Below, piece by piece: positions 742-56,478 of a DNA stretch of 56,478 nucleotides. Numbering within the stretch: the stretch's first letter is position 1; each line of letters starts with the position of its first letter. Source of the stretch: a virus (Duplodnaviria; Caudoviricetes); IMG/VR virus record IMGVR_UViG_3300037487_000664, positions 1-56,478 of that record. The stretch is one strand, 5' to 3'. Both the position numbers and the translations under genes were made by a program. The notes under the pieces were generated by a model that saw nothing but the letters and a program-made list of their open reading frames with translations, did not search any database and had not been told where the DNA came from.

Positions 742-1017
742 TCAGGTCTCCTGCTCTTTGATTTGCGCCGCCATAGCGACGACCTCCTGCTCAAGGTCCG
801 CGATGCGGCACTCAAGGTCTTCAATCTGCCCGTCGAGGTCTTCGACGCGATCTTGCAGTGTGTCCTCGCGGTAGGCCGACGACGCCGCCAACTCCACCAT
901 GTCCTCAAACCGCTCGATCAGCGCCACGACGAACTCGTCGGTGTAGGTCCGGGCCTCCTTGCCGTGGAGCAGCAGCTCCTCGTCGGACAGCATCCGGTAA
1001 TAATCTGGGCTTCTCAC
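742..1017 (-). CDS. hypothetical acidic coiled-coil protein
   Basis: GTG at 1017 follows GGAGACCTGA RBS; heptad pattern LQDRVEDLDGQIEDLECRIADLEQ. Confidence 0.65.
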   Translation of the reverse strand: MRSPDYYRMLSDEELLLHGKEARTYTDEFVVALIERFEDMVELAASSAYREDTLQDRVEDLDGQIEDLECRIADLEQEVVAMAAQIKEQET

Positions 1018-1065
1018 ATCAGGTCTCCTTGTTGAAAATACCATGCACCCATTACGTTGAAGGGG

Positions 1066-4445: not shown

Positions 4446-4490
4446 TGGTCTACCCCGGGCTGGGTGTACCGGCGCTGCCGCTCGGTCATG

Positions 4491-5124: not shown

Positions 5125-5209
5125 GACGTGACACTCCATATGAAAGCGAGGATGGGTGCCCAGCAGAGCAGGGCTAGGCCGAAAGCTATCAATAATGCTG
5201 ATAGTCTGG

Positions 5210-5620: not shown

Positions 5621-5740
5621 GGTCTTCAGGTCTCCTTCAAGGCGCACCGTACTAGGTCGGTGCAGGTTGTCAACAATCGTCAAGTTTGACGAGGGCGGCG
5701 AAAATAACGAGCAGCAGCAGGGCGAAGATAGCCAAGGCCC

Positions 5741-6088
5741 CTACTCCTCCAGACTGCTGGCGAGCGCGTTGACGGGCTCCAGCAGGGCCTCAAGGCTGAC
5801 GTTGTAGTCACAGATGACGTCCCAGCCGCTGTTGCCGTAGACGAGGAAGACCCACGCGGTGTGGCCGTCCTTGCGGAGGTAGAGCCGGTCCTCGTCGGCC
5901 TCCATGATGTTGTCAGTCACCTCGGCCCGGTTGGTCGTCCACGGGTGCTGGCTGTCGCCGTCATCGACGCTCAGTTCGTAGCCCTCGGCCAGCGCGCGGT
6001 CGATCAGGGCGGTGACGATCCGGCGCTCGACCGCGATGCGGCGGCGGGTCTCGGGGTCGGTGATGTCGCTCAGGTTCTTGGGGTACAT
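5741..6088 (-). CDS. conserved phage hypothetical protein
   Basis: 115 aa; strong RBS; WVFLVYGNSGWDVICDY motif. Confidence 0.75.
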   Translation of the reverse strand: MYPKNLSDITDPETRRRIAVERRIVTALIDRALAEGYELSVDDGDSQHPWTTNRAEVTDNIMEADEDRLYLRKDGHTAWVFLVYGNSGWDVICDYNVSLEALLEPVNALASSLEE

Positions 6089-6097
6089 GGTCTCAGG

Positions 6098-6458
6098 TCT
6101 CCGTGGGACAGGGGGATCAGAACTCGTTCAGGCAGGCCTGCGAGATGAGGCGATATTGCCCGGTGTCAAACTTATTTTTGACGCTCCCGCCACAGGCAGT
6201 ACTGGGCGACCTTCGTGCCCAGCCAGTAGGCGAGGCCGAAGGGGAAGACCGCCAGCAGCAGGACGGGCCAGACCACGGCGAGCATCCACAGCGCGTCGCT
6301 GCCCTCGTCCACCATGTCTGCGCCCTGCAGGAAGGCGAGGCCCAACCCCCAGATCAGGATGCCCCCGAAGTAGGTGGCGGCGATCAGGGTGCCCCACTGG
6401 TCGTAGGTCATTGGCGTGGTTCTCCGTGGGACAGGGGGATCAGAACTCGTTCAGGCAG
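6098..6458. repeat. 38-bp perfect direct repeat (6098-6135 and 6421-6458) flanking a membrane-protein gene
   Basis: TCTCCGTGGGACAGGGGGATCAGAACTCGTTCAGGCAG read at both positions. Confidence 0.95.
6172..6411 (-). CDS. small two-TM membrane protein
   Basis: Two hydrophobic stretches; GGAG RBS. Confidence 0.7.
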   Translation of the reverse strand: MTYDQWGTLIAATYFGGILIWGLGLAFLQGADMVDEGSDALWMLAVVWPVLLLAVFPFGLAYWLGTKVAQYCLWRERQK

Positions 6459-6676
6459 ATCAGCGAGACGAAGTCGTTGAGGGCCGTGGTGATGCCGTCG
6501 CGCGTCGGGCGCACATCCCACGTGGAAATCTCGGGGAGGGCGCTCGACCCCCGGTCGCCGAACGGCTCGTGTTGAGCCAGCCGGTCGGCGACGTAGGCCT
6601 CGGCCATCTTCCGCGTCGCTCGGAACTCCCACGTCATGCCCCGCTGCAGCATGTCGGTGATCAGGTAGATTTTCAT
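6440..6676 (-). CDS. hypothetical protein
   Basis: 78 aa; AAGGAA RBS; ends CLNEF. Confidence 0.65.
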   Translation of the reverse strand: MKIYLITDMLQRGMTWEFRATRKMAEAYVADRLAQHEPFGDRGSSALPEISTWDVRPTRDGITTALNDFVSLICLNEF

Positions 6677-6688
6677 GGCGTGGGTTCC

Positions 6689-6901
6689 TTACGGTGCGAT
6701 TTCAATGATCGAGACGACAAACATTGCGGCGAAGGCCAGAACGAACAGGGCGAGGCAGGCACCGCACAGGCCCACCGCTATCGCAACAGCCACGTTCTCG
6801 TAGCCGCTGCCGAACCCGCTGCGGTACTCCTTGATCGCGATGGCAATCCACAGGACGCCAAACAGAATGACAAGATACGACGTGGCGTCTTCGGGGGTCA
6901 T
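6689..6901 (-). CDS. small two-TM membrane protein
   Basis: ATG 6901 after GGAGACCTGACT; hydrophobic. Confidence 0.7.
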   Translation of the reverse strand: MTPEDATSYLVILFGVLWIAIAIKEYRSGFGSGYENVAVAIAVGLCGACLALFVLAFAAMFVVSIIEIAP

Positions 6902-6951
6902 AGTCAGGTCTCCTAGGTGGCGGCGGGGGCGGTGCGCCCCGGCCTGTTGAT

Positions 6952-6980
6952 CTTCTAGCACTGCACCATTATGGGTGCAA
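6952..6980 (-). promoter_or_regulatory. sigma70-type promoter TTGCAC-N17-TAGAAG overlapped by CACC-N6-GGTG operator
   Basis: Read on minus strand; near-identical layout to the plus-strand promoter at 50173-50201. Confidence 0.65.
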
Positions 6981-6985
6981 GGGGT

Positions 6986-7117
6986 TTATTTGCGGGGGCG
7001 ACAGGCGACGCAGTCGTACCAGCCGCGCGCATCTCTGGAGGCGGTTGACCCTTGTGGGAGCCAGCAGCCGCACCGACAGCGGATCAATGTCGGCGTGTGA
7101 AGGAGGGGCCGCTCCAT
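6986..7117 (-). CDS. small Cys-rich protein
   Basis: MERPLLHTPTLIRCRCGC..DCVACRPRK; TGATG coupling to upstream ORF. Confidence 0.45.
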   Translation of the reverse strand: MERPLLHTPTLIRCRCGCWLPQGSTASRDARGWYDCVACRPRK

Positions 7118-7248
7118 CACGCGCCCTCGCTGCAGTGGTCGTCGGCCTCTTGGGCCTCGCCCTCGGCGCGGTCGGCGTCGGCCTCGACGTCGCCGTAAAA
7201 GTCGTCGGCGCAGGCATAGTTGGCCGGGTTGCGGTAACGGTAGGACAT
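7117..7248 (-). CDS. small acidic protein (43 aa, not in ORF track)
   Basis: MSYRYRNPANYACADDFYGDVEADADRAEGEAQEADDHCSEGA; AGGAG RBS. Confidence 0.6.
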   Translation of the reverse strand: MSYRYRNPANYACADDFYGDVEADADRAEGEAQEADDHCSEGA

Positions 7249-7302
7249 GGTCGGTGCTCCTGTGAGGGGTGGCCGGGGCACGAGGCCCCGGCCCGGTGAG
7301 GG

Positions 7303-7611
7303 TCACGCCTTGCGGGCGCTGACCTTGACGGTGACGTAGGCCACGGTGGCCTTCTGGTGGCGGTTAAACCAGCGCCCGTCGACGCCCAGCTCGACCAGCT
7401 TGGCCTCCATGGCCTTGGGGTCGGGTGCCGAGCGGGCGGCGACCTCGGAGACGCTGGCGCGGTAGGCCGCGCCGTCATAGGCCCCGGCGCCCATCGCCTT
7501 GACCTCGTCGATCAGGAAAGCCTCGACGGCCTTGAGGTCGGCGATCTGCGCCTTGATGTCGCCCAGACGGTCGACGGGCGAGATGTTCGAGATGGTGGCG
7601 GCTATTGTCAT
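7303..7611 (-). CDS. conserved phage hypothetical protein
   Basis: VDRLGDIKAQIADLK..GAAYRASVS; own promoter module and RBS. Confidence 0.75.
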   Translation of the reverse strand: MTIAATISNISPVDRLGDIKAQIADLKAVEAFLIDEVKAMGAGAYDGAAYRASVSEVAARSAPDPKAMEAKLVELGVDGRWFNRHQKATVAYVTVKVSARKA

Positions 7612-7627
7612 GTTCAGGTCTCCAGTT

Positions 7628-7683
7628 TGCTGGGCCGTCCGGCCCCGATGTCTTCACCCTACAGGGTGCAGCATGGGGGTCAA
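7628..7683 (-). promoter_or_regulatory. repeated early promoter module, copy 1 (TTGACC-N16-TAGGGT, operator, 5' hairpin)
   Basis: GGGCCGTCCGGCCCCGATGTCTTCACCCTACAGGGTG shared with the 9288 and 9824 copies. Confidence 0.8.
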
Positions 7684-7711
7684 CAACTATTTTGCTGCCC
7701 CCTGTATTATT

Positions 7712-7945
7712 TTACAGGTCGGTGGGCGGCAGGCGCTGGCGCAGGCGGATGGCGGGCGCGCACCAGTCGGCAAGCTGCCGCTCGACCTCAACCAGCTCGC
7801 TCATTTGAGCCGTCAGATCGTCCTCATACTCTCCCGCCTCCTCTGGCGCGGCGAGGCGGTCGATGGCGCGGGCGATGTGGCCCATGGCCTCCTCGACGTG
7901 CTCCAGCGCGGCGCGCATGTCGGAGCGGGTCAGGATCGTGGTCAT
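7712..7945 (-). CDS. hypothetical protein
   Basis: 77 aa; GAGGTG RBS; coupled. Confidence 0.6.
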   Translation of the reverse strand: MTTILTRSDMRAALEHVEEAMGHIARAIDRLAAPEEAGEYEDDLTAQMSELVEVERQLADWCAPAIRLRQRLPPTDL

Positions 7946-8154
7946 TGGGTCACCTCGTTAATTTCGAAGGCGTACAGCTCGTCGGCGGTCAGGGGCCGAT
8001 CTGTGCTGTAGACGCCGTAGCGGCGGGTGCTGATCGGCAGGTCGCTGTTGTTCGGCCTGAAGGCCGTCAAGGCGGGCTGCTCGACCCAAGCCCAGCCGAC
8101 CTTGGGGATGGTCCCGAGGCCCACCGGGCGCAGGCGGTTGTAGTAGCGGCTCAT
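7942..8154 (-). CDS. DarA C-terminal-like domain protein (putative anti-restriction)
   Basis: Y..LRPVGLGTIP..YGVYSTDRPLTADELYAFEI resembles the DarA_C pattern; near ArdC. Confidence 0.6.
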   Translation of the reverse strand: MSRYYNRLRPVGLGTIPKVGWAWVEQPALTAFRPNNSDLPISTRRYGVYSTDRPLTADELYAFEINEVTQ

Positions 8155-8336
8155 CAGAGCGCCGCCATAGCGTCGTCGGCCATGATCAGGGCGCGCTCTT
8201 GCGCCGCCGCGATCTGGACGGCGTTGAGGCCGAGGGCGAAGTGGTCCGCCAAGAGGCTGGCGCTGTGGGCCTTCGCGTCGTCCGGCGCGGTCAGCGCGAG
8301 GAACAGGGCGTTGGTGAGGGCGTAGACGGGGGTCAT
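8154..8336 (-). CDS. hypothetical protein
   Basis: 60 aa; AGGAGACC RBS. Confidence 0.6.
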   Translation of the reverse strand: MTPVYALTNALFLALTAPDDAKAHSASLLADHFALGLNAVQIAAAQERALIMADDAMAAL

Positions 8337-8392
8337 AGTGGTCTCCTGTGGGTGGTGGGCCGGGGGCGGGATTGCCCCCGGCTCGTTGGTAG

Positions 8393-9259
8393 TTAGGCGG
8401 CCAGAGCCGCCTCCTCGACCTGCGAGGCGAGGATCAGGTCCGCCGCCTTCTGGGCCTTACCGGCGGCGGTGATGAGCGCCTTGGGGTCGGAGCGCAGGAC
8501 TTTGGCCCAGCCCTGCAGGTACGCGGCGTGGTCGTCGCGGGCGGGGTTGTCGAAGCCCAGAGCGCCGCAGACAAAGGCGGCGGTCAGCTCGGCGACCAGT
8601 TCCTCGAAGGCGTAGGCGGGGTCGCCAAAGAGCTTGCCCTTTGTGCGGTCCAGACGGCTCGCGGCACCGGTCCAGTGGGCGATCTCGTGGAAGGCCGTCG
8701 CGTAGTAGGCGTCGGACTGGTTGAACGCCTCCTTGTGGGGGAGGCAGATCACGTCGCTGCTGGGGATGTAGCAGGCGCGGTCACCGCCGTGCTTGATGAC
8801 GGCCCCCGTGGCCGCGATCAGGTCATCGGCGGCGATGTTCCGCTCGAACAGCGAGGGCTGGGCCAGAGGGTCGGCGGCCTTGTGCTCGACGCCCTCGGTC
8901 TGGTCGATGTTGAAGACGGTATAGGTCTTGGCCCAGACCAGCTTCTCGGCTTTGCCGGTGGCCTCATTCTTTTTGTCGGTGAATGACCAGAAGAACACGG
9001 CGGTGCCCTTCTCGCCCTTCTTGACGCCGCCACCGGCGGCCTTGGCCTGATTGAAGGTCAACCAGACGGGAGCGCTGTAGCCCTTGGCGTCCTGCAAGAG
9101 CGACAGCCAGAAGCTGTTCGCGCCGCGATATGTGCGGCCCGAGAGGTTGTGGGGGAGGGCCGAGGCGGCGGTCCAAGGCTTGTGCCAAGGGGCGACACCG
9201 GCCTCTATCTTGGTGGCGAGGGCGTCGGCGATCTGGGCGAAGAGTTCGTCGGTCTTCAT
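8393..9259 (-). CDS. ardC: ArdC-family anti-restriction protein (ssDNA-binding plus zincin-like domain)
   Basis: PWHKPW, YRGAN, WLTFNQA..VKKGEKG, VFNIDQTEG, HEIAHWTG..RLDR, YAFEELVAEL, HAAYLQGW. Confidence 0.93.
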   Translation of the reverse strand: MKTDELFAQIADALATKIEAGVAPWHKPWTAASALPHNLSGRTYRGANSFWLSLLQDAKGYSAPVWLTFNQAKAAGGGVKKGEKGTAVFFWSFTDKKNEATGKAEKLVWAKTYTVFNIDQTEGVEHKAADPLAQPSLFERNIAADDLIAATGAVIKHGGDRACYIPSSDVICLPHKEAFNQSDAYYATAFHEIAHWTGAASRLDRTKGKLFGDPAYAFEELVAELTAAFVCGALGFDNPARDDHAAYLQGWAKVLRSDPKALITAAGKAQKAADLILASQVEEAALAA

Positions 9260-9264
9260 GTTCT

Positions 9265-9368
9265 TAGTCCTTCCGGTCTGGTCTGCTGGGCCGTCCGGCC
9301 CCGATGTCTTCACCCTACAGGGTGTAGGGCAGGGGTCAATGCACAAAATGCACTGCCCCTGCATTATT
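9265..9368 (-). promoter_or_regulatory. repeated early promoter module, copy 2
   Basis: About 100 bp nearly identical to 9801-9904. Confidence 0.85.
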
Positions 9369-9374
9369 TTCGGG

Positions 9375-9581
9375 TCAGTCCTCTTCGGGCTCGTCCTCGG
9401 CCAGTTCGCCCCTCTCGGCCAGCTCGGCCAGATCGGCGGCGTGCAGGGCGGCGGTGCGGGCGTTGCGCTCGGCCTCGGTGGCCCGGCGCGCCACGCGCTG
9501 GGCGCGGTAGGCGGCGTCGGCCTCTTCGCGCTCTGCCTCTTCGCGGAGGCGCTGGGCCTCTGCCTCGAATAGCTCGTCCAT
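9375..9581 (-). CDS. hypothetical charged helical protein
   Basis: 68 aa; AGGAGACC RBS. Confidence 0.6.
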   Translation of the reverse strand: MDELFEAEAQRLREEAEREEADAAYRAQRVARRATEAERNARTAALHAADLAELAERGELAEDEPEED

Positions 9582-9605
9582 AGCGGTCTCCTGTACGTGA
9601 GGGGG

Positions 9606-9794
9606 TTAGGCGGCTTTCGCCAGCAAGCCGTCGTAAACGTCGCTCATCATTGTGTGCCACGCCTGCATTTTGGCGATCAGCGCGAAGTGGTCAGCCTGCG
9701 GCAAGCGGCGCGCTGTGATGCTCTCGCCCCATGCGCGGGCTTCGGCGTTGATGCGGCTGATGTCCTGCTTGTACGCTGCGAGGCTGTAGGTCAT
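9606..9794 (-). CDS. hypothetical protein
   Basis: 62 aa downstream of promoter copy 3. Confidence 0.6.
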   Translation of the reverse strand: MTYSLAAYKQDISRINAEARAWGESITARRLPQADHFALIAKMQAWHTMMSDVYDGLLAKAA

Positions 9795-9800
9795 GTGGTC

Positions 9801-9904
9801 TAGTCCTTCCGGTCTGGGTGGCGGGGCCGTCCGGCCCCGATGTCTTCACCCTACAGGGTGTAGGGCAGGGGTCAAGCACAAAATGCATTGACCCCTGCAT
9901 TATT
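9801..9904 (-). promoter_or_regulatory. repeated early promoter module, copy 3
   Basis: TTGACC-N16-TAGGGT, then ACATCGGGGCCGGACGGCCCCG hairpin, then CAGACCGGAAGGACT RBS. Confidence 0.85.
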
Positions 9905-10133: not shown

Positions 10134-10185
10134 GTCAGGTCTCCTTGGGTGAGGGGCCGGGGGCGCTGCCCCCGGCAGTTGGTGA

Positions 10186-47566: not shown

Positions 47567-49842
47567 TGGCTGAGCCGAGCACCGTCAAAAAACGAGCCGC
47601 CCTAAAAGCCTACAAGCCCTCTCTGCGCGAACGTGCGCAGATCGGCATGGAGGGCCTCTACACCCGCGCTACGGGCCGCGAGCCGGGTTACGCGCCCCGC
47701 CGCTTTATGGGGAAGGCCAGCGAGCTGCTGGACTTCATCCCCGGCGTCGGGGACGTGATCGGCGTCGATGAGACCAAGCGCGCCTTAGACCGCAGGCGGT
47801 ATCTTGAAGCCGGTCTGCTGGGAGCTGGCACGATGCTGGGCGTCGTCCCTGTTGTTGGCGACGTGGCGGGTAAGGTGCTCAAGGGAGCAGCCAAGCCCGC
47901 CCAGCAAGCGGTTGAGAAGCTGGCGGCAAAGTACGGCGTTGAAGTGCCCAAAGCACCCAAAGCACCCAAAGTGCCCAAAGCGCAGACGGGCATCCTCGCT
48001 ACGCCCAATCTCCGCGAAATGGATACGGCGTCCGCCATTAAGGCCGCGCGCAGCGAACCGCACTTGATCCTTGGCAACGATGGTTACGTTGGCGCTCCGG
48101 CTGGTGTCAGCACGCCCGAACAGGTCGGGGCGCTGCGCCAGAACTTTGATGCGGATGTCGCTAGAGGTGCTGGTGGTGCGGACTGGTACGAGCGCGCACG
48201 CGATTTTAACAAGGAGATTGCCGGGTCAAATCCAGCACGGCGCACTCTTGCTGCGCGTGAGCAGGCACTGTGGTCGGCGCAAGCCAACCCCGACACCAAC
48301 TTCAATTTTTCGCTTCAAGGGCACAACGCCTACGAGGCGGGCAAGCCCCTTACCAAGGTGCGCACGGGACAACAGGCGCGCACGTACACCGCTGCGCGCG
48401 ACGCGGACGTGCCCATCCCCTTGGGCAAGAAAACGGGCGTGTACGGCACCCACCTTGATCCGGGTGTACCTCCCGCCACAACGGGCACGAACGACATCTG
48501 GCACGCACGCGGTCTGGGTTACACCGGCGCAGACGGCAAGGCGTTCTCGCGGGCGCTGACGGCCCAAGAACACCGCTACATGGATTACGAGACGCTTCTG
48601 GCCGTAGAACGCGCCAACGCCGCGAAACTTGGCGGGCGCGAGAACTGGACGGCTGCCGAGATACAAGCCGCGCCTTGGGTAGCGGGTAAAGGCAAGCAGC
48701 TTGCGACCAAGCGTTTTGCAAAACAAAACATGCTGGGGCACAACGGCGGCCCGCCCATGGGTCTCAGCGACGAACAACTGCAATGGGGCTTGGACGAGGC
48801 GGGCAAGACCTACCCGGACTACGCGAATAAATATACCGCCTTTGGTACATACGAAGCCACGCCCGGAGCCGTTACGGGCCACCTCCCTGACCTCGTAAAG
48901 TCAGACATCCCTACCCGAGAAGCCTATGCTGCAGACCCCCGCTCGTCGTGGACGGACGAAGAGGGCCGAGACATCCTTCACGACGCTCTCGGTATGTATC
49001 AGCGCCCAAGCATAGGAGCGCAAGGTGTGTTTGAGCCAACGGGCGGCGGCCCCATAGAGTTTAACCCCGCAGGCGTTTCGCGTCCTCTGGTGGGCCTAAA
49101 ACCCGTTGATGGTGAGCACTTCGTGGACCCCGCCTCCCGCGCTTTAATGTCGTCGGCGGAAGCCTTGCGCGCAGGAATGGGCGCGCAAGAGGCAGGCGCT
49201 TGGCACAAGCCCATACCTAACACCAAGGCGGGCGCGATGGGCTCGGTGTTTACGCCTTTGTCTGGCAAGCGCACGCCGGAAGAACTTATGGGTTTGCGCG
49301 ATCTCGGCGCTAAGTACGGCATTGGCGATGTTGTAGATACCGGCCAAGGCGTGACAATGACCAACTTCTACCCGGGTCCGCCTTCGGGCGCGGCAACCGG
49401 GAAGGCGTTGAAAAAAGGTTTAACAACAAAACTAAGAGACCTATTGCCCGGCAGCGAACCTAAACGTGTGAAGGTAGACAGTGATTACATCGACTTTGCG
49501 GATGAGTGGAAAGCCCCTTCGGGATCGGGTTCCGTGACGGGAAAAATGCTTGAGTACCTCACGTCGCCGGAAGCGCCGGGGGCTTTGGCTAAACTGGACA
49601 CGCCTGAAATACGCAACGCCGCAAAAGCAATGATGGAACGCGATTACGAACTGGCCGCGCGCACTGGACAAGCCGTGCGTGAAGATGTTCAGAACCTGCG
49701 CCGCATCATTGCCGAGCGGGGTGTTGCAGCGTTAAAAGCCGCTCTTGATAACAAAGAGTTTCTGCCCGCACTGCTTATGGCTGTTGGAGCGGGGGGTCTA
49801 GGAGCGTCTCAGTTTTCGCTTTCCCCGAAAACGGGCGAGTAA
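47566..49842 (+). CDS. virion-delivered effector: PT-TG-like linker plus DUF7178/glycosylase-like helical domain
   Basis: LGVVPVVGDVAGKVLK; ADWYERA..WSAQ..TNDIWHARGLGY..IQAAPW. Confidence 0.6.
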   Translation: MAEPSTVKKRAALKAYKPSLRERAQIGMEGLYTRATGREPGYAPRRFMGKASELLDFIPGVGDVIGVDETKRALDRRRYLEAGLLGAGTMLGVVPVVGDVAGKVLKGAAKPAQQAVEKLAAKYGVEVPKAPKAPKVPKAQTGILATPNLREMDTASAIKAARSEPHLILGNDGYVGAPAGVSTPEQVGALRQNFDADVARGAGGADWYERARDFNKEIAGSNPARRTLAAREQALWSAQANPDTNFNFSLQGHNAYEAGKPLTKVRTGQQARTYTAARDADVPIPLGKKTGVYGTHLDPGVPPATTGTNDIWHARGLGYTGADGKAFSRALTAQEHRYMDYETLLAVERANAAKLGGRENWTAAEIQAAPWVAGKGKQLATKRFAKQNMLGHNGGPPMGLSDEQLQWGLDEAGKTYPDYANKYTAFGTYEATPGAVTGHLPDLVKSDIPTREAYAADPRSSWTDEEGRDILHDALGMYQRPSIGAQGVFEPTGGGPIEFNPAGVSRPLVGLKPVDGEHFVDPASRALMSSAEALRAGMGAQEAGAWHKPIPNTKAGAMGSVFTPLSGKRTPEELMGLRDLGAKYGIGDVVDTGQGVTMTNFYPGPPSGAATGKALKKGLTTKLRDLLPGSEPKRVKVDSDYIDFADEWKAPSGSGSVTGKMLEYLTSPEAPGALAKLDTPEIRNAAKAMMERDYELAARTGQAVREDVQNLRRIIAERGVAALKAALDNKEFLPALLMAVGAGGLGASQFSLSPKTGE

Positions 49843-49945
49843 AGGCCACTACGCCAGCCATCTGCCGGTACAACTCATGTTCTTCGGCGGCGGTGTAAGG
49901 CGGCTCATGGTAAGGGCTGCCGTAGTCGTCGTACTTACGTACCAT
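49775..49945 (-). CDS. small convergent protein (56 aa, not in ORF track)
   Basis: MVRKYDDYGSPYHEPPYTAAEEHELYRQMAG...; AAGGAGACTTGAC RBS; TAGACA-N17-TAGGGT promoter with operator. Confidence 0.65.
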   Translation of the reverse strand: MVRKYDDYGSPYHEPPYTAAEEHELYRQMAGVVAFTRPFSGKAKTETLLDPPLQQP

Positions 49946-50028
49946 GTCGTCAAGTCTCCTTTGTTGTTACGGATTTCACCCTAATAGGTGAAGGCTTTCG
50001 TGTCTAGCCCTTTTCGCTATCGGCATAG

Positions 50029-50154
50029 TCTTGCGCCAGCGCCGCCATCGACCTCGCTCAGCTCAAGTCCACCATGAACCGTGGCACCTTCGACCCCAAC
50101 GATCCGAACCTGAGCAAGGCGCGCGGTGGCCTCGTCGAGAAGTACGGCGCATAA
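50029..50154 (+). pseudogene. orphan 3' end of a former ejection/polyvalent protein gene
   Basis: ..AIDLAQLKSTMNRGTFDPNDPNLSKARGGLVEKYGA*. Confidence 0.6.
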
Positions 50155-50172
50155 ACAGGCTCAATTTAGCAC

Positions 50173-50201
50173 TTGCACCTTGTTGGGTGCTGTGCTATAA
50201 A
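50173..50201 (+). promoter_or_regulatory. promoter TTGCAC-N17-TATAAG with CACC-N6-GGTG operator
   Basis: Direct reading; parallels 6952-6980. Confidence 0.7.
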
Positions 50202-50256
50202 GGGTTGTTCCCGGCAATCGCGCCGAGAACAGCTCTTTGAAAAAGTGAGACCTGAA

Positions 50257-50472
50257 ATGCGCTACCTCCCTTATCCCGAGGCCGTTAAAACGACGGTTGG
50301 AAACAAGGTTAGCTGGAATGCCTACGCCGACCGCGAGACGGCTGAGCTTGCCGCCCAAACCGCAGAACACAACGCTCGGATTGCTGCAAGCGAAGGCTAT
50401 GACTTTGGGTATTGCTGCCCCGGCGATATTACCGTGACCAAAGACGGCTTGTTTGAAGTCTGTCTGCCGTAA
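50257..50472 (+). CDS. hypothetical protein (moron-like)
   Basis: Own promoter, GAGACCTGA leader and terminator; GYDFGYCCPG..FEVCLP. Confidence 0.7.
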   Translation: MRYLPYPEAVKTTVGNKVSWNAYADRETAELAAQTAEHNARIAASEGYDFGYCCPGDITVTKDGLFEVCLP

Positions 50473-50480
50473 GCGTACCA

Positions 50481-50510
50481 CCCCCGGCCTAACCGCCGGG
50501 GGTTTTCTTT
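50481..50510 (+). terminator. intrinsic terminator at the convergence point
   Basis: CCCCCGGC-CTAACC-GCCGGGGG-TTTTCTTT. Confidence 0.8.
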
Positions 50511-50512
50511 GC

Positions 50513-50758
50513 CTATTTCGAGGCTAACTTCCAGTCGTCCCCGTCGTCGCCACCGCAATCCAGATAATAGTCCCGCTCCCTGCCGGGGACGTTAGTGTCG
50601 CAATGAGAGACGCGGTGGCCCTCGCCCCACCCGTGGACGTGCTCCTCGCCGCAGTGGGGGCAGTCGATCAGTGCTTGATCGCCCTCTCTGCGAGCTACAA
50701 CCGTCGGCCACCTACGCTTATCCGGCGCAACCATTGCGTTGCTTACTTCTTTGGTCAT
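50513..50758 (-). CDS. small Zn-binding protein
   Basis: CPHCGEEHVHG..GHRVSHC. Confidence 0.65.
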   Translation of the reverse strand: MTKEVSNAMVAPDKRRWPTVVARREGDQALIDCPHCGEEHVHGWGEGHRVSHCDTNVPGRERDYYLDCGGDDGDDWKLASK

Positions 50759-52119
50759 TTCTTTCTCCGTTTCAGGTTCTCAAGCAGGATGTCCTGCACC
50801 GATCTCTTGGTCTTGAGCCGCTCTAGGATCATGGCGTCTACGGTGTCGCGCGCCACGATGTGATGCAGGAAGACGGGCCGGTCGAGCCCGGCCTGCTTCT
50901 GCCGCATTGGGCCGACGCGCTCGATGATCTGCATGTGCTCTTCGAGGTTCCAGTTGACGCTGAAGAAGCACAGGATGTTGCCGCCCTGCGCGAGGTTGAT
51001 GCCATGCCCAGCCGACGCAGGTTGCGCCAGCAGGATCGGTATCTTGCCCGCGTTCCAGTCGTGGATCGTCTGCGGCTTGGCGTCGAGCACGCGGGCCTTG
51101 GGGAACGCCTCCTGCAGCCGAACGAGGTCGCTCTTGAAGTGGTAGGCGACCAGCACCGGTGCGCCGTTGGCCTCCTCAATCACGCTCTCCAGCGCCTCGA
51201 TCTTGGCCTTGTGGACCTCGCGCCAGTTGTGGTTGTCATCGACGTAGGCCGCGCCGTTGGCCAACTGCAGCAGCTTCATGGTCTTGACCGCCGCATTGAC
51301 GGCCTCGACCCCGAACTCCTCGATCTCGGCGAACATCTCCTTCTCCATCTCGTCGTAGATGGCGCGGGCGTCGCGGGGCAGGTCGATCTGGATGTTGTTG
51401 ACGATGGGCGCGTCCACCGGCAGGCCGGTGACCGTCAGGCACACGTCGCGCAGCCTGCCCTCGATCTCCTGCTGCGCCAGCCTGTTGGGCTGCAGGCTGT
51501 AGCCGTCCCAGCCCTTGGTGAACCAGCGCGCCTCGAAGGCCCCGAACGTGTGGCCCAGCCGCTGGCCCTTGTCGAGGAACCACGTCTGGCCCCAGAGGTC
51601 GTTTAAACCATTCGGCGACGGCGTGCCGGTCAGGCCGATGAACCGGCTGACGTCGGTGTGCGCCACGCGCGACAGGGCCTTGGCGCGGGTCGAGCCTTTG
51701 CGCAGGCGGAAGCTCTTCAAGCGCGTAAACTCGTCGGCGACGACCGTCTTGAACGGCCAGTTGTCGAGGTGCTCGCTGACCAGCCACTGGAGCTGCTCGT
51801 AGTTGGCCGTGTACACGTCGGCGGGGACGCGCAGGGCGCGCTCGCGCTCCTTGACGTTGCCGGTGACGACGCTGACCCGCAGGTGCCGCAGGTTGGCCCA
51901 CTTGGCCACCTCGTCCGGCCACGTCGTGCGCGCCACCCGCAGCGGGGCCAGCACCAGCACGGGGAAGACGTCCTCGACCTGAGACAGGTGATCGAGCGCC
52001 AGCAGGGTCGAGGCGGTCTTGCCCGTCCCCATGCCCGCCCAGACCGCGCACCGGGGCGTGTCCTGAATGAACTTGATGATGTCGAGCTGGTAGGCGTGGG
52101 GTTTAAACATCTCGGTCAT
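50755..52119 (-). CDS. SNF2-family (SF2) helicase
   Basis: MGTGKT, VVADE, LTGTPSPNGL.DLW, SAGHGINL. Confidence 0.93.
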   Translation of the reverse strand: MTEMFKPHAYQLDIIKFIQDTPRCAVWAGMGTGKTASTLLALDHLSQVEDVFPVLVLAPLRVARTTWPDEVAKWANLRHLRVSVVTGNVKERERALRVPADVYTANYEQLQWLVSEHLDNWPFKTVVADEFTRLKSFRLRKGSTRAKALSRVAHTDVSRFIGLTGTPSPNGLNDLWGQTWFLDKGQRLGHTFGAFEARWFTKGWDGYSLQPNRLAQQEIEGRLRDVCLTVTGLPVDAPIVNNIQIDLPRDARAIYDEMEKEMFAEIEEFGVEAVNAAVKTMKLLQLANGAAYVDDNHNWREVHKAKIEALESVIEEANGAPVLVAYHFKSDLVRLQEAFPKARVLDAKPQTIHDWNAGKIPILLAQPASAGHGINLAQGGNILCFFSVNWNLEEHMQIIERVGPMRQKQAGLDRPVFLHHIVARDTVDAMILERLKTKRSVQDILLENLKRRKK

Positions 52120-52565
52120 TCGACCCGCCGCCTTCGCGACCCGAAAGACGGCGCGGATACGTGCATGACGTTGTGGTGCGTCTCACAGTACAACTTCTCA
52201 GGCATAACCGGCAGACAACAGGAGCAGGTTACGCCCCCGGCTGTCAGAGGAAAGGCGCACTCGCCAAAGACGCGGGTCTCCCACGGGCGCGGCGTACTGC
52301 CCTTCAGCACGCGCTCCTCGGCCACCTGACGCACGGGCGGGGGCGGGCGACGCGGCACGAGCGGCGGAGGCGCAGGCGGCACGGGCGCGCGCATGCCCTT
52401 CGCAATGACGCTGCGTTGCAGGCCCTGCCGATGCATCATGTTGAGGACGGCGGAGCGGCTCCTGCCAACCAACTTACCGATCTCGGTAGGGCTGGTGCCC
52501 GCCTTCCACATAGCCTTGGCCTTCTGCATCATCTCGGCGGGCCAGCCATTCTCACGCCGTCGCAT
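52116..52565 (-). CDS. gcrA: GcrA cell-cycle regulator homologue
   Basis: W..K.MW.AG.S..EIG..SRSAV...HR.GL HTH; C.FP..C..YC..H C-terminal domain. Confidence 0.8.
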   Translation of the reverse strand: MRRRENGWPAEMMQKAKAMWKAGTSPTEIGKLVGRSRSAVLNMMHRQGLQRSVIAKGMRAPVPPAPPPLVPRRPPPPVRQVAEERVLKGSTPRPWETRVFGECAFPLTAGGVTCSCCLPVMPEKLYCETHHNVMHVSAPSFGSRRRRVE

Positions 52566-52567
52566 GG

Positions 52568-52753
52568 TTACGCCGCCAGTGTGCGGAGCGTGCAGGAGGC
52601 CTGCTCCAGCTCTTGGGTCAGGCGCGCCACCTGCGTCAACATGTCCGCCGTCGTGTACGGGCCGTTGAAGATGGTACTCAGGGCCTGCGCGCGCGCCTTC
52701 ACCGTGTCGGCGGCGCGGTACATCTCGACAGAGGGTCTCCGATATTCAATCAT
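52568..52753 (-). CDS. hypothetical protein
   Basis: 61 aa in operon. Confidence 0.5.
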   Translation of the reverse strand: MIEYRRPSVEMYRAADTVKARAQALSTIFNGPYTTADMLTQVARLTQELEQASCTLRTLAA

Positions 52754-52964
52754 TGTTTTTCTTCTTTGCGTTTTGGAGGGCTTTGATGGCGAGCAGCATG
52801 TCTAGGCACTGATTTCCGAGCTTGGGGTTCCGTTCCCCGGCTCGCAGTCCTAGCGTCAACTCCTCCGCCATCAAGTCCAAGGCCAACACGGCGTCCTCTT
52901 CAGACAGGAGCAGCCAGCCCAACACGATCTTGTCCATGTGCGGATCGTAGGTCGCGACGGTCAT
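52746..52964 (-). CDS. hypothetical protein
   Basis: 72 aa in operon. Confidence 0.5.
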   Translation of the reverse strand: MTVATYDPHMDKIVLGWLLLSEEDAVLALDLMAEELTLGLRAGERNPKLGNQCLDMLLAIKALQNAKKKNND

Positions 52965-52986
52965 GCTGCACCCCCTTGGTTGACGA

Positions 52987-53286
52987 TTACTGTACGCACC
53001 CCACGGGTTGCGTCAACATGAAAACAAGCTCGTCGGCGTCTTCTTTTGACCAGATGACCGCGACCATAAAACCAGCAGCGGCCAAGCGCTCCAGCTCCCG
53101 CGTCTGCAGGGTACTCAGCCGCCCATTGGGGGCCTTGATCTCGACAAAGGCGAAGAACGGCCCCGTCCACCAGATCAGGCAATCGGGCGCACCCCGGCGA
53201 CCGGTCCACTCCATCTTGCGGAATTGCCCACCCAGCGCCTCGACGCGCTTCTTCAGGTAGGCTTGGATTTCACCTTCAGGTGTCAC
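52987..53286 (-). CDS. VRR-NUC nuclease
   Basis: EGEIQ..GAPD..FVEIKAPNGRLS.LQ. Confidence 0.9.
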   Translation of the reverse strand: MTPEGEIQAYLKKRVEALGGQFRKMEWTGRRGAPDCLIWWTGPFFAFVEIKAPNGRLSTLQTRELERLAAAGFMVAVIWSKEDADELVFMLTQPVGCVQ

Positions 53287-53287
53287 C

Positions 53288-53617
53288 TTACTTTCCGAAA
53301 CGCTTTTTGTTTTGATAGTCTGTTTCGGACATGACGCTCACAAAGGTCTTACCTTCGTGTTGGACTAGCGCGATCACTCGGTCGTATTCCAAGCCCTGTT
53401 CAGCCTCGAAATGCAAAACGACAGAAGTACTCCCCCGAGACAGATCGCCCCGCATATCTGCGTTGGTCAGCGTTGAACCGTCGGCGTTCACGCGCACGCA
53501 GGTTCCTTTGTCCGGCGTGTGGTTAAACATCTCAAGATATGAAAAGTGAGTATCGTTATCCAAAGAGTAATCGTATCCGTTGGAAAAATCGTGGTGGTAC
53601 TCGTTAATAAGTTTCAT
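53288..53617 (-). CDS. hypothetical protein, AT-richer insertion between polA and VRR-NUC
   Basis: Composition shift; probable ATG 53617. Confidence 0.55.
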   Translation of the reverse strand: MKLINEYHHDFSNGYDYSLDNDTHFSYLEMFNHTPDKGTCVRVNADGSTLTNADMRGDLSRGSTSVVLHFEAEQGLEYDRVIALVQHEGKTFVSVMSETDYQNKKRFGK

Positions 53618-53621
53618 CAGC

Positions 53622-55565
53622 TCAGCCTTTTCTGTAGCGTTTGGTTTCAAAGCCTGCCGCCGCGAGGGGCAGGCCCACGGCCCACTGTGGACCGGTAGAC
53701 ATCAGCTTGGCCAGACCCTCGTGCGTGTACTCGGGGCTGTCTGGCGTCTCGCACAGCAGTTCGTCGTGGACGTGCAGGACGATGGGGTAGCCCGCCGCCT
53801 CGGCGTGGCGCATGCCGCAGGTCAGGATGTCCCGCGCAGCGGCCTGCGTCGCGTTCTCGACCAACTTGCCGCCGTAGGTGTCCAACCGGGTCCACTTGCG
53901 GGTGTACTGGTCAGTGCCCTCGTAGGACAGCTTGCCTGCGTCGTCGATGGCGGCGTTGGGGTAGCAGAGGTAGCGGCTCGACGGCAGGCCCACCCGCAGC
54001 CACGTCCCGTCGACGCGGAAGACCAGCTTGCCCGCCGTGTACGCCTTGCCCGGCGTCGCGAGCGCAAGGCGCGCGGCCTCCTCCGTCAACTTCCAGAAGG
54101 TTTTCGTAGCGGAGTGCGCCTTGCGCCACGCCTCTACCAGCTCCTTGACGCGCCAATCGGGCAGCTCGATGCCGTAGAGCCCGGCCATCTTGGCAAATGC
54201 GCCGCTCCCGCCCTGATAGCCCAGCGCCAGCTCCATGACCTTGCCGATCTGGCGCTCGTCCGGGGTCACGTCCTCGGGCTTCTTGCTGAAGGAGCGGGCA
54301 TAGGCCAGCTTGTAGAGGTCGGGGCCGATGCCCCGGTCGAAGTCGGCGAAGGCGTCCAGCTTCCACTGCTCGCCCGCCAAGAACGCCAGCATGCGCCCCT
54401 CGATGTTGGACAGATCGGCAATGACCAGCTTCTTGCCGGGGGCCGCTACGAGACAGCCGCGCACGGCGGACGTGCAGAGTTCCACGACGTTGTCGAACAG
54501 CATGTCCTCAACGTCCGCCTTCATGGCGGCAATGCCCACCTCGATCTCGGCGTGCTTCATCGTCGGGCGCGGCAGGTTCTGGGGCTGGAATAAGCGCCCG
54601 CCCCAGCGGCCCGTCCTACTGGCACCGCAGAACTGCAGGGTGCCCCGGAGGCGTCCGTCACTTGACGCTGCGTTAGAAAGAGTGCGGTACTTAGCTGGGC
54701 TCGTCGCCGACGCCTGCGCCCGGTTCTCCAGCAGTGCGCGGATGTCGGAGGTTAGATCGTCCCGCAGTAGCAGCTTGTCGATTGTGCCTCCCCGAAGGTC
54801 ATCAGTCTCAAGCCCAAGTTGCCGCAGGTGGTCGAGGGTCTTGCCGCGCTGGCTGGTGTTGGTCACGGCCCCACCCGTCAGCGCGGCAGCTTCCTGCGCG
54901 AGGCGTTTAGACGCCCTCTGCGCGGCGCGCTGCGCCACCTCGGCCAGTTCGCGGTCGACGGCGATGCCCCGGTCGTTGATCGTCTGGTCGAGCCGCCACA
55001 TCTCCAGCTCTCGGCCCCGGTAGTTCCAGATAGGCAGGCGGCTGTAGACCTCGCGCATGGCCTCCACGTCGAGGCGCGCATATTCAATAAAATCCTGCCA
55101 CACCTCGGGATGAGTTTCGGTGGTGGCGCGGGCCAGTGTCCGGTTCCGGCCCAGAGGCTTTGTAAACAGGTGGATGAGCTTCTTGCCGTCCTTGTCCTTA
55201 GCCTTGTCAAACGGCACCTCTAGCACGTCGCAAAGCGCGCCCAGCGCGGCAGGCAGGCTGTGCGCCAGCGCCTGCACCATCGTGTCGTGAACCTTCTCCA
55301 CGGGCGCGTTTACACCCTGCCAGCGCAAGACCGTCCGGTCGAAGGCGCTGTTGTGGATGACGATCTTGTCGGCGGCGTCGATGGCCGTCTGCAGCCGGAC
55401 TAGGTAGGCCGCTCGGTTGCCGTCGGTGCAGTCCCACACCTCGACCGGCGCGTCGTCCACGGCCTGCGCAATCAGCAGCACCTCGGCCCGCTCGGCGTAG
55501 GCGTGCGTGCCGTGCGCAATAGGCACGGCACAGTACGTTTCGAGGTCGAGGAAGAGGGTGGTCAC
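53622..55565 (-). CDS. polA: family A DNA polymerase with 3'-5' exonuclease
   Basis: LDLET, HNSAFD, TGRWGGR..QPQNLPR, ADLSNIEGR, RQIGKVMELALGY, HVHDE. Confidence 0.95.
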   Translation of the reverse strand: MTTLFLDLETYCAVPIAHGTHAYAERAEVLLIAQAVDDAPVEVWDCTDGNRAAYLVRLQTAIDAADKIVIHNSAFDRTVLRWQGVNAPVEKVHDTMVQALAHSLPAALGALCDVLEVPFDKAKDKDGKKLIHLFTKPLGRNRTLARATTETHPEVWQDFIEYARLDVEAMREVYSRLPIWNYRGRELEMWRLDQTINDRGIAVDRELAEVAQRAAQRASKRLAQEAAALTGGAVTNTSQRGKTLDHLRQLGLETDDLRGGTIDKLLLRDDLTSDIRALLENRAQASATSPAKYRTLSNAASSDGRLRGTLQFCGASRTGRWGGRLFQPQNLPRPTMKHAEIEVGIAAMKADVEDMLFDNVVELCTSAVRGCLVAAPGKKLVIADLSNIEGRMLAFLAGEQWKLDAFADFDRGIGPDLYKLAYARSFSKKPEDVTPDERQIGKVMELALGYQGGSGAFAKMAGLYGIELPDWRVKELVEAWRKAHSATKTFWKLTEEAARLALATPGKAYTAGKLVFRVDGTWLRVGLPSSRYLCYPNAAIDDAGKLSYEGTDQYTRKWTRLDTYGGKLVENATQAAARDILTCGMRHAEAAGYPIVLHVHDELLCETPDSPEYTHEGLAKLMSTGPQWAVGLPLAAAGFETKRYRKG

Positions 55566-55837
55566 CCCCGCGTGCCGTAGAGGGCTTCGCTGACGCGCCC
55601 GATGTTGACGCCGAACTCGCGCGCAACCTCCATCTGGGGGGCCTTGGGGTGCGCGGCGCAGTATGCGCGGATCGCCTCCGCCCTCTCTGGCGTCAGGGCT
55701 AGAGCGCGCACGGGAGACTTGCGCCCATTGTACCGGCGAAAGGTGGCGTCGGCCAAGAAGTTAAGCTCGGGGCAATCCAGCTCGACGGCAAGTTCGCGCA
55801 TACGCGCCCGGATAGCGGGGATCGTGAGATCGTGCAT
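55562..55837 (-). CDS. HTH protein
   Basis: QMEVAREFGVNIGRVSEAL. Confidence 0.7.
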   Translation of the reverse strand: MHDLTIPAIRARMRELAVELDCPELNFLADATFRRYNGRKSPVRALALTPERAEAIRAYCAAHPKAPQMEVAREFGVNIGRVSEALYGTRG

Positions 55838-55859
55838 AACAATGTCCTTGAGGTTGCGT

Positions 55860-55898
55860 CGCCCCCCGCCCGGAGACCTGACTTCTAAGCGGGGGGCG
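55860..55898 (-). ncRNA. candidate anti-RBS stem-loop RNA (10-bp stem; 19-nt loop UUAGAAGUCAGGUCUCCGG)
   Basis: Intergenic hairpin CGCCCCCCGC/GCGGGGGGCG; loop complementary to GGAGACCUGA leaders. Confidence 0.5.
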
Positions 55899-55908
55899 CG
55901 CGGGCTAC

Positions 55909-56175
55909 CTAGACGAGGTCTAGACAGCCCATGGCGGCAGCGTATAGCTCCAACATCGCCTTGTCCTCCAGCAACTTGGTCCGGTCCTTCTTACGAAGGG
56001 AGACCAGTTTGCGAAGAGACTTGGTGTCGAAACCGCTGCCTTTGGCCTCCGCGTACACCTCATTGATGTACTCGGCGGCGACGGCCTTCTCGTCCTCCAG
56101 CGTCTCAACCCGCTCGATAATCGAGCGGAGCTGGTCGCTGGCGACGGGCGGGCCGTTGTGGCCAACGTCCGGCAT
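55909..56175 (-). CDS. gapR: GapR/DUF2312 nucleoid-associated protein
   Basis: DQLRSIIERVETLEDEK..EVYAEAKGSGFDTK..LELY..A.G. Confidence 0.92.
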   Translation of the reverse strand: MPDVGHNGPPVASDQLRSIIERVETLEDEKAVAAEYINEVYAEAKGSGFDTKSLRKLVSLRKKDRTKLLEDKAMLELYAAAMGCLDLV

Positions 56176-56478
56176 CAGACGAAGTCGTCTTCGAGGGCGG
56201 AAGGAGCCCCGAAGTCGTCCGCCGACGCGGCAGCGCCGCCACCGAAGCTCTCACCGTGACCGGCAAAGCGAACGCCCCGCAGACCGCAGTTGATGCGCCG
56301 ACCCCACTTGTTGTCTTGCGCGTAGAACTCGATAGCCGCGTCCACATACGCGCCGCTGTAGATCAGACCGTCTGCCTCGGTGACGGGGCGGTTGGCAAGA
56401 TCGAAGGCGGTCGGCTTGGTCTTGGCCGAGCGGCTGGAGATGTGAAACGTCCCCTCGAACCCGTCGTAGGGCTCGCCG
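56175..56478 (-). CDS. DUF2815 ssDNA-binding protein, C-terminal part
   Basis: Manual translation ..IYSGAYVDAAIEFYAQDNKWGRRINCGLRGVRFAGHGESFGGGAAASADDF..DDFV*. Confidence 0.85.
   Translation of the reverse strand, partial: GEPYDGFEGTFHISSRSAKTKPTAFDLANRPVTEADGLIYSGAYVDAAIEFYAQDNKWGRRINCGLRGVRFAGHGESFGGGAAASADDFGAPSALEDDFV

Follow-up and report, generated by a model that had tools for sequence, protein, structure and literature searches.

A predicted hairpin downstream of gapR in an uncultured phage clade: a candidate antisense partner for a start-associated ribosome-binding-site motif

This report concerns a predicted RNA hairpin located directly after a gapR-like gene in an uncultured phage, together with a short ribosome-binding site (RBS) motif whose complement lies in the hairpin loop. 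The DNA examined is the IMG/VR virus record IMGVR_UViG_3300037487_000664 (G000), which has an estimated completeness of 97% and a G+C content of 62%; its full length of 56,478 bp is called the window below. Minus-strand genes extend from position 1 to ~10,400 and from ~49,775 to 56,478, and plus-strand genes occupy most of the remainder. Circular permutation of the record would unite the minus-strand genes in a single early and replication block, whose products include ArdC-like, Cro/CI-like helix-turn-helix (HTH), primase-helicase, GapR-like, family A DNA polymerase, VRR-NUC, and GcrA-like proteins. The closest cultured phages are the Caulobacter phages RW, KcrB, RLK, and GB2A, with ~70% DNA identity across the polymerase region, and related DNA is found in lake-water and sediment metagenomes from 14 studies. 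The presence of both GapR and GcrA homologues suggests that the host is likely an alphaproteobacterium. The features at the locus are as follows.

55909..56175, minus strand: gapR-like gene, 88 aa (Pfam GapR_DNA-bd, E 8.4e-27; list of open reading frames, ORFs)
55856..55901, minus strand: hairpin in the gene-sense RNA (sequence and RNAfold; stem conserved in six distinct sequences)
55872..55886, minus strand: 15-nt loop AGAAGUCAGGUCUCC, of which 55872-55881 is the reverse complement of the RBS motif; the plus strand reads GGAGACCTGA
55562..55837, minus strand: small gene, 91 aa, directly after the hairpin (matches phrog_23243, of unknown function, only)
53622..55565, minus strand: family A DNA polymerase gene (matches annotated polymerases of Caulobacter phage RW, Bordetella phage BPP-1, and others)

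On the plus strand, positions 55860-55898 read CGCCCCCCGC-CCGGAGACCTGACTTCTAA-GCGGGGGGCG. In RNA of the same sense as the genes, positions 55898-55889 pair with 55869-55860, which creates a core stem of 10 G/C pairs closing a 19-nt loop (UUAGAAGUCAGGUCUCCGG on the minus strand). Two extra U.G pairs are possible (55888 and 55887 with 55870 and 55871), giving a 12-bp stem and a 15-nt loop, and three outer stem pairs are present beyond a 1-nt bulge. The hairpin is retained when minus-strand positions 55830-55925 are folded with RNAfold (minimum free energy -40.3 kcal/mol, z-score -2.09), and 2 of 200 shuffled sequences are as stable. The stem is followed by ACGCAACCUCAAGG, and a U tract is absent on both strands. 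The gapR stop codon lies 10 nt upstream of the core stem, the next gene starts 22 nt after the hairpin, and all of these elements reside within one same-strand gene run. An earlier note on this DNA, made by a model that saw only the letters and a list of ORFs, had described a 10-bp stem with a 19-nt loop and no U tract, and had named the upstream gene gapR. The reading of the sequence, the RNAfold prediction, and the Pfam match bear out these descriptions. Its label of "HTH" for the downstream gene is not confirmed, as this 91-aa protein has no Pfam match and its sole match is the PHROG of unknown function listed above.

Several conventional assignments for this hairpin were considered and rejected. 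A canonical intrinsic terminator likewise has a G/C stem after a stop codon, and the stem here, with 10 G/C pairs and two possible U.G pairs, exceeds the minimum of five pairs. However, the loops of 14-19 nt, as compared to 3-8 nt for terminators, and the missing U tract set it apart (the loop is 14-15 nt in the forms compared across the clade). The hairpin is also not among the seven terminator-like sites found by a scan of 49700-56478, which did pick up, at 50480-50503, a terminator of canonical form that has a U tract. Nor does the motif on the plus strand serve as an RBS for a small ORF, since a start codon after it is absent both in the window and in relatives. Finally, no known RNA family was found for the hairpin. 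The whole window yields no Rfam match at the gathering score, including to C4 RNA, and with E up to 10 positions 55700-56050 give one unrelated 14-bit hit that leaves the hairpin region unmatched.

The loop acquires its interest from a sequence that recurs ahead of early genes. The exact 10-mer GGAGACCTGA occurs seven times on the minus strand (742, 1019, 5626, 6093, 6904, 7614, and 10135) and once on the plus strand (55872), the latter being the copy within the hairpin loop. It opens with a Shine-Dalgarno (SD)-like GGAG at the usual RBS distance, and each minus-strand copy sits 1-6 nt ahead of an ATG or GTG at the start of a 70-138 aa ORF. All seven copies reside in the minus-strand early block between 742 and 10144. 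The plus-strand block at ~12.7-49.8 kb has no copies, except for chance-level hits with one mismatch inside genes. Chance alone would produce ~0.05 copies of a 10-mer per strand (56,478/4^10), and a control pattern written backwards has no copy on either strand. Allowing up to one mismatch gives 13 matches, compared to 3.07 expected, and none of 100 shuffles reaches 13.

We scored pairing between the loop and each site as the sum of duplex energy and opening energy. This score replaces RNAcofold, in which pairing of a loop with a linear sequence counts as a pseudoknot. The motif sites, their downstream starts, and their predicted pairing energies with the loop are listed here, followed by one further gene of the early region that is needed below.

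10135..10144, minus strand: motif GGAGACCTGA, 1 nt before ATG 10133 (76-aa ORF); -17.7 kcal/mol
7614..7623, minus strand: motif, 2 nt before ATG 7611 (102 aa); -14.3 kcal/mol
6904..6913, minus strand: motif, 2 nt before ATG 6901 (70 aa), with the longest loop match, 12 nt; -17.4 kcal/mol
6093..6102, minus strand: motif, 4 nt before ATG 6088 (115 aa); -13.3 kcal/mol
5626..5635, minus strand: motif, 5 nt before ATG 5620 (136-aa pentapeptide-repeat protein); -15.0 kcal/mol
1019..1028, minus strand: motif, 1 nt before GTG 1017 (91 aa); -15.1 kcal/mol
742..751, minus strand: motif, before ATG 739 or 735, its TGA doubling as the stop codon of the upstream ORF; -17.7 kcal/mol
49950..49959, minus strand: variant motif GGAGACTTGA, 4 nt before ATG 49945 (56 aa), with one G.U pair to the loop; -15.9 kcal/mol
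50246..50255, plus strand: variant motif TGAGACCTGA, 1 nt before ATG 50257 (71-aa gene); -10.9 kcal/mol
3156-3377: gene for a Cro/CI-like HTH protein (protein family scan of the early region)

For the eight motif or near-motif sites on the minus strand, accessibility-corrected energies range from -13.3 to -17.7 kcal/mol, whereas the next best of 50 starts reaches -11.6 kcal/mol. The loop's five strongest minus-strand duplexes each fall on an RBS. The loop itself is predicted to be unpaired, with an opening cost of 3.0 kcal/mol. The match lengths that the earlier note had given were confirmed, with 12 nt at the start at 6901; 11 nt at 6088, 10133, and 739; 10 nt at 7611, 5620, and 1017; and 9 nt at the plus-strand start at 50257. 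Its statements that the full 10-mer has only one antisense copy, and that no start codon follows this copy, are likewise correct; the single plus-strand copy at 55872 has no ATG or GTG, nor a TTG, within the 14 nt after it.

A scan of viral contigs for gapR yielded 49 loci, and the 150 nt after gapR were folded in each. A G/C hairpin straight after the gapR stop codon, with the complement of the motif (the anti-motif) in its loop, is present at 6 of the 49 loci, which lie on six contigs (L053, L054, L055, L056, L057, and L058); the remaining 43 have no such hairpin within the folded 150 nt. A scan of viral contigs for the hairpin pattern returned 18 stretches, comprising seven from the clade (L197 among them, a further lineage) and 11 palindromic hairpins unrelated to it. 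The same pattern gave at least 120 matches in genome contigs, and a single true relative is present among the matches listed, a 63-kb contig of a metagenome-assembled genome (L251) that belongs to the G007 lineage. None of the cultured phages in the phage collection carries the hairpin. In total, five distinct hairpin lineages are known, counting the window together with G002, and their GapR proteins are 62-95% identical to that of the window.

In metagenome contigs scanned with a gapR profile, none of the 80 loci kept of 560 confirmed has more than one exact 10-mer or a one-strand cluster like that of the clade. When 125 gapR loci were screened for a loop after gapR whose complement is enriched before starts, the clade alone was singled out. 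A scan with the polymerase gave five loci, of which L036 and L038 are informative, L037 starts at the polymerase gene, and L039 and L040 have no gapR; a scan with the 91-aa protein gave 26 distant loci, none of them from the clade. DNA contigs of two sequencing runs show no difference within 55860-55898, which is uninformative at their ~2% divergence.

Alignment of stem and loop across the clade provides six distinct sequences and 12 stem pairs, for a total of 66 cells. Standard pairing is observed in 66 of the 66 cells, and at two pairs both partners were substituted (C-G became G-C, and G-C became U-G). Sliding the partner by 1-3 columns reduces pairing to 54-57%, and 5 of 500 shuffles match the observed pairing. 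U.G pairs occur at three stem positions; on the opposite strand these would be C.A mismatches, so that they pair only in the gene-sense RNA. Coming from six related sequences, this pattern lends modest support to the predicted stem.

The loops, which are 15-19 nt long in the window and 14-15 nt in relatives, fall into two groups. The window, G002, G007, G008, and L197 carry AGAAGUCAGGUCUCC, and G001 and G006 carry UGGUUUCAGGUC[U/C]C. The 5' part of the loop varies by group (AGAAG versus UGGUU), as does the spacer after the stem. All lineages share only UCAGGUC[U/C]C, which complements the RBS motif; conservation in the loop is thus confined to its motif-complementary part. By eye, a YUNR U-turn motif can be seen in the loops of some lineages and not in that of the G007 lineage, and it was not used further. 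Caulobacter phage RW also carries a hairpin after its gapR-like gene, with a 6-nt loop and no anti-motif. This arrangement suggests that a hairpin at the post-gapR position is older than the anti-motif.

The RBS motif is retained across the same clade. Exact forward and reverse copies number 7 and 1 in the window, 10 and 1 in G007 (63,419 bp, complete), 7 and 1 in G008 (whose record is reverse-oriented), 6 and 0 in G006, and 4 and 0 in G001. In the window, G007, G006, G001, and L197, 29 of 29 exact forward copies stand 1-6 nt ahead of an ATG or GTG with which an ORF of 52 aa or more begins. The same 10-mer is found in G001, G006, G007, G008, and L197, whose GapR proteins show 60-72% identity to that of the window, with flanks that vary between sites, and therefore the 10-mer itself is what has been kept. 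The G001 loop holds a reverse copy with one mismatch. The G006 loop is altered at two positions (UCAGGUCCC), such that its opposite strand, CGGGACCTGA, matches the motif at 8 of 10 positions, 7 of them contiguous. In RW, the nearest cultured relative, there are no copies in either orientation; among 52 annotated early-strand starts of this phage, GGAGAC precedes eight and the 10-mer precedes none. Because the clade has both elements and RW has neither, motif and anti-motif loop are jointly present or absent wherever we examined them.

One RBS in G006 deserves separate mention. A 74-aa gene found only in that genome starts at an ATG preceded by C and the RBS GGGACCTGAAACC (L055:14264-14281), and this RBS is complementary to the altered G006 loop over 13 contiguous nt. 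A match of this length is expected ~0.002 times in that 20-kb locus. Because the 74-aa gene has no orthologue elsewhere, the match is lineage-specific and suggestive, rather than true covariation.

Chance as the source of the match between motif and loop is rejected by the copy counts, by the lengths of complementarity, and by conservation. Judged by sequence comparison, the hairpin belongs to the gene-sense RNA as a conserved and structured element, its loop is conserved where it is exactly antisense to the start-associated RBS motif, and loop and motif are linked beyond chance. This much of the interpretation offered in the earlier note stands, given that hairpin and loop core are kept in five lineages while stem and remaining loop vary, that motif and anti-motif are both missing from RW, and that the changed G006 loop has its own 13-nt RBS match.

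A precedent for the motif exists in mycobacteriophages. Cluster K phages carry start-associated sequences (SAS), which are conserved 13-mers located 3-7 bp before the starts of non-structural genes and in one orientation (Pope et al. 2011, PMC3203893). According to the passages of that paper cited here, K1 phages have one SAS copy per genome in reverse orientation, which does not lie at a gene start, and the SAS partner is left open as "RNA or protein" (PMC3203893). A similar start-associated motif has been described in Microbacterium Cluster EF phages (PMC7302621, 2020), and the cited passages of both the 2011 and the 2020 papers call the SAS role unclear (PMC3203893, PMC7302621). The remark in the earlier note that no description of such a system was known to it is thus too strong, as Cluster K start-associated sequences and their reverse copies were described, in the passages cited, in 2011 (PMC3203893). 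At the level of titles and abstracts, a literature search returned no description of the arrangement reported here or of an antisense partner for SAS.

Like SAS, the motif in the window is asymmetric and unusually conserved, contains an SD core, and lies a few nucleotides before the starts of some non-structural genes; it too is nearly always in one orientation and is kept across related phages before different genes. Examined as a SAS-type sequence, the window motif shows placement at starts, restriction to non-structural genes and to one orientation, and conservation beyond that of a generic SD sequence. Unlike the SAS of Cluster K, however, it is 10 nt long and unrelated in sequence, and its phage probably infects an alphaproteobacterium, not an actinobacterium. 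The antisense copies are also placed differently. In the window this copy is inside an operon after gapR, whereas in Cluster K it is in a separate noncoding region near the genome end.

We examined the reverse SAS copy of the Cluster K phage Anaya (JF704106) for a comparable structure. This genome has 16 forward copies and one reverse copy of SAS with up to two mismatches, compared to 0.65 expected. The reverse copy is located in a 385-bp noncoding gap after an intrinsic terminator, and RNAfold places it in a 10-nt apical hairpin loop, with a single-fold z-score of only -0.68. The surrounding region (L201:39780-39960; record positions ~59,779-59,959) contains multiple hairpins, and its conservation extends to 150 Mycobacterium phage records; in some of them a hypothetical protein is annotated across this noncoding region. 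For nine sampled K phages, RNAalifold predicts 46 pairs, eight of which have changed on both sides, with the anti-SAS sequence in the apical loop. The anti-SAS sequence CCTCCTATCCC is retained in six of the nine; in Ekdilam it is present as a variant, in Yuna it is missing, and in Keshu its place is taken by other sequence. By these alignments and predicted folds, the same architecture, a start-associated motif together with an antisense hairpin loop, is thus present in an unrelated phage group. The Cluster K phages with this arrangement can be grown on a laboratory strain, Mycobacterium smegmatis mc2 155.

We tentatively favor, at somewhat less than even confidence, the reading that the hairpin is an operon-embedded antisense element that occludes the start-associated RBS motif and thereby causes a delayed shut-off of the motif-bearing early genes. 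On this reading, the minus-strand transcript that spans the replication module would carry the hairpin just past gapR, and the loop of 14-15 nt would display the complement of GGAGACCUGA, the extended SD motif that precedes 4-10 early genes per genome. Once transcription reached the replication module, the loop could pair with the motif-bearing ribosome-binding sites, acting either within the mRNA or as a stable decay fragment shielded by the G/C stem. Such pairing would hide these sites from 30S subunits and reduce translation of the motif-bearing early genes. The outcome would be a delayed negative feedback, with an effect akin to that of a protein repressor acting on the translation of early phage mRNAs. 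What the analysis shows directly is the structure and how it is conserved, the complementarity of the loop to the motif, the strict location of the motif ahead of starts, and the fact that motif and anti-motif occur together or are missing together; pairing in the cell, its repressive effect, and action in cis or in trans are inferred.

A number of observations weigh against an antisense brake of this kind. The motif GGAGACCTGA is identical in every lineage found, and the main motif therefore shows no covariation with the loop; common descent together with independent constraint on each element may explain this identity. The base after the motif does not follow the loop, with the exception of G007. 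In G006, six standard motif copies persist beside the drifted loop, and thus the motif needs no perfect antisense partner. Similarly, three of the four K genomes scanned (Ekdilam, Yuna, and Keshu) have 16-17 forward SAS and no reverse copy, which indicates that an antisense loop is not needed to maintain the motif in those phages. In addition, a helix of 10-12 bp within a closed 15-nt loop would be sterically strained, and the computed energies ignore this strain. Finally, metatranscriptome contigs from two runs cover gapR only (55992-56142 and 56026-56238), in contigs where RNA ends and strand are not visible.

Alternative functions for the hairpin must be weighed against the same data. One, which we consider unlikely yet deserving of attention, is that the hairpin serves mainly as an mRNA element between two cistrons, one that blocks 3' exonucleases, terminates transcription weakly or with the help of a factor, or is a site of processing, and that sets the ratio of gapR to polymerase expression. 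In that case the loop would owe its conservation to a bound protein, and its complementarity to RBSs would be inconsequential. The location between two closely spaced genes of one same-strand run suits such an element, as do the U-tract-less intergenic G/C hairpins that are also present upstream of the motif sites at 6904 and 10135, and the RW hairpin that follows a gapR-like gene and has no anti-motif. Left unexplained by this proposal, however, are the exact complementarity of the conserved loop part to a 9-10 nt motif and the 13-nt match of the variant G006 loop to a G006 RBS. Other intergenic hairpins in this phage have loops of 3-4 nt, and comparison of 30 early-region proteins with Pfam, in which most proteins have no family at all, revealed no known RNA-binding protein and no RegA-like family.

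Two further proposals dispense with gene-sense RNA pairing altogether. It is improbable, in our estimation, that a sequence-specific phage or host protein binds the 10-mer as double-stranded DNA, in the manner of the asymmetric "stoperator" sites of Cluster A mycobacteriophages, with the reverse copy being one more site that by coincidence falls within a hairpin-forming inverted repeat. Confinement of the motif to the early and replication region with a strong one-strand bias could be read in this way, particularly as this phage has other repeated operator-like sites (CACC-N6-GGTG, 8 copies versus 1.56 expected) and encodes the Cro/CI-like HTH protein listed above. However, a DNA site has no need of the placement seen in 29 of 29 forward copies, with GGAG at RBS distance from a start. 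Moreover, the reverse copy always falls within the unpaired loop, and the stem pairing has been kept through compensatory and U.G changes, of which the latter are functional only in gene-sense RNA. Those U.G pairs count equally against the proposal that a plus-strand transcript forms the hairpin and presents the motif GGAGACCUGA in its loop as a decoy for 30S subunits or for a translational repressor that binds the motif, as they become C.A mismatches on the plus strand. The loop of such a transcript would indeed carry the motif in the sense orientation, and one plus-strand gene (50257-50472) does exist within the minus-strand block. Nonetheless, no plus-strand ORF or start follows the motif, and the neighboring genes are all on the minus strand. 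When 49700-56478 was scanned with a promoter consensus, nothing promoter-like turned up on the plus strand close to the hairpin, the only plus-strand hit being at 52725-52753; this is weak evidence given that the scan models E. coli-type promoters. We regard a decoy role as highly improbable.

The preferred reading, in which the loop acts as an antisense brake on early translation, has parallels among known regulatory systems. The C4 RNA of phages P1 and P7 and the CI RNA of P4 are antisense RNAs processed from within operons, and the sar RNA of P22 and the OOP RNA of lambda are cis-antisense RNAs. All pair at sites overlapping RBSs, and thereby block translation or cause termination. The proposed element would share with these RNAs its phage origin, its production from the same transcript or region as its targets, and pairing at sites that overlap RBSs. 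However, each of those RNAs has a single immunity or antirepressor target, whereas 7-10 unlinked genes share the target sequence here. The hairpin region also has no Rfam match, to C4 or to any other family.

One-to-many pairing through a hairpin loop is known from bacterial small RNAs. The staphylococcal Rsa RNAs, the alphaproteobacterial AbcR RNAs, and the CcsR or "cuckoo" RNAs use C-rich, anti-SD-like hairpin loops that pair with the SD sequences of many mRNAs. The loop described here is likewise pyrimidine-rich and complementary to the SD region of several mRNAs. In contrast to this hairpin, which is intercistronic, lacks a U tract, and matches a phage-private 10-nt motif, those RNAs are free-standing or located in 3' untranslated regions, have their own terminators, and use seeds of 5-8 nt on generic SD-like sequences. 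Control of a class of early phage mRNAs at their ribosome-binding sites is also achieved by T4 RegA, which represses their translation. An early mRNA class would be targeted in both cases, but the T4 effector is a protein and the candidate effector here is an RNA loop.

Taken together with the Anaya region, these observations raise the broader proposal that phages of unrelated groups, this clade and Cluster K, each tag a set of early or non-structural genes by a private extended SD "barcode" and possess a single hairpin with an antisense loop, which would together constitute a phage-autonomous, RNA-based circuit for the timing of translation, and that the partner of SAS is an RNA. We consider this generalization rather doubtful at present. 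Even so, SAS have been reported since 2011 without a known partner, and the hairpin in the window is a compact, conserved candidate for such a partner. If the antisense reading is correct, it would represent a one-to-many RNA switch by which a lytic phage shuts off early proteins without a protein repressor. It would be a variant of known antisense control that offers a testable RNA partner for SAS, and it would supply a compact, transferable module for controlling translation in synthetic systems. If the loop does not repress, motif and hairpin would remain a clean comparative marker of an uncultured freshwater phage clade.

The genes flanking the hairpin differ in how faithfully they accompany it. 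The window and G001 have the 91-aa gene, which G002, G006, and G007 lack; in these three the polymerase gene comes immediately after the hairpin. Because the hairpin is kept in genomes that lack this gene, it travels with gapR and not with the downstream gene. The 91-aa gene is an insertion or a deletion whose boundary falls just past the RBS that follows the hairpin (window 55562-55837; L036:2320-2395; L056:7233-7310). The polymerase of the window is 91% identical to the ORF in L036, and the G002 polymerase is likewise 91% identical. On the other side of the hairpin, the last gapR codons and the stop codon (55909-55925) form a small palindrome, CTAGAC-CTC-GTCTAG, that is retained in relatives with G.U variants. 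It may be a simple consequence of the conserved C-terminal residues LDLV.

Elsewhere in the minus-strand genes, the GcrA-like protein (52116-52565) matches Pfam GcrA with E 5e-6, just above the cut-off, and the ArdC-like anti-restriction or metallopeptidase protein (8393-9364) has the domains ArdcN and MPTase-PolyVal. The 14 nt tccccctgtcccac precede the RBSs of two neighboring minus-strand genes, with starts at 6411 and 6088 (6411-6450 and 6088-6130). The full 10-mer is present only in the second of these RBSs (6088), and the first (6411) reads GGAGAACC. This repeat looks like a duplicated intergenic cassette.

The palindrome CACC-N6-GGTG is found at 4177, 6964, 7655, 9311, 9847, 12619, 49977, and 50176, and none of 100 shuffles reaches these eight copies. 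Seven of them fall in the minus-strand early and replication block, among the early genes (4177-9860) or upstream of the gene starting at 49945 (49977), or beside a divergent gene pair at ~50 kb (50176), and the eighth (12619) is outside the block. The palindrome resembles an operator for a phage repressor. The divergent pair occupies 49945-50503 and consists of a minus-strand gene of 56 aa (start 49945) and a plus-strand gene of 71 aa (50257-50472). Both genes have a variant of the RBS motif and an upstream CACC-N6-GGTG site, and the plus-strand gene is closed by the terminator at 50480-50503. Small regulatory switch regions are laid out in this way.

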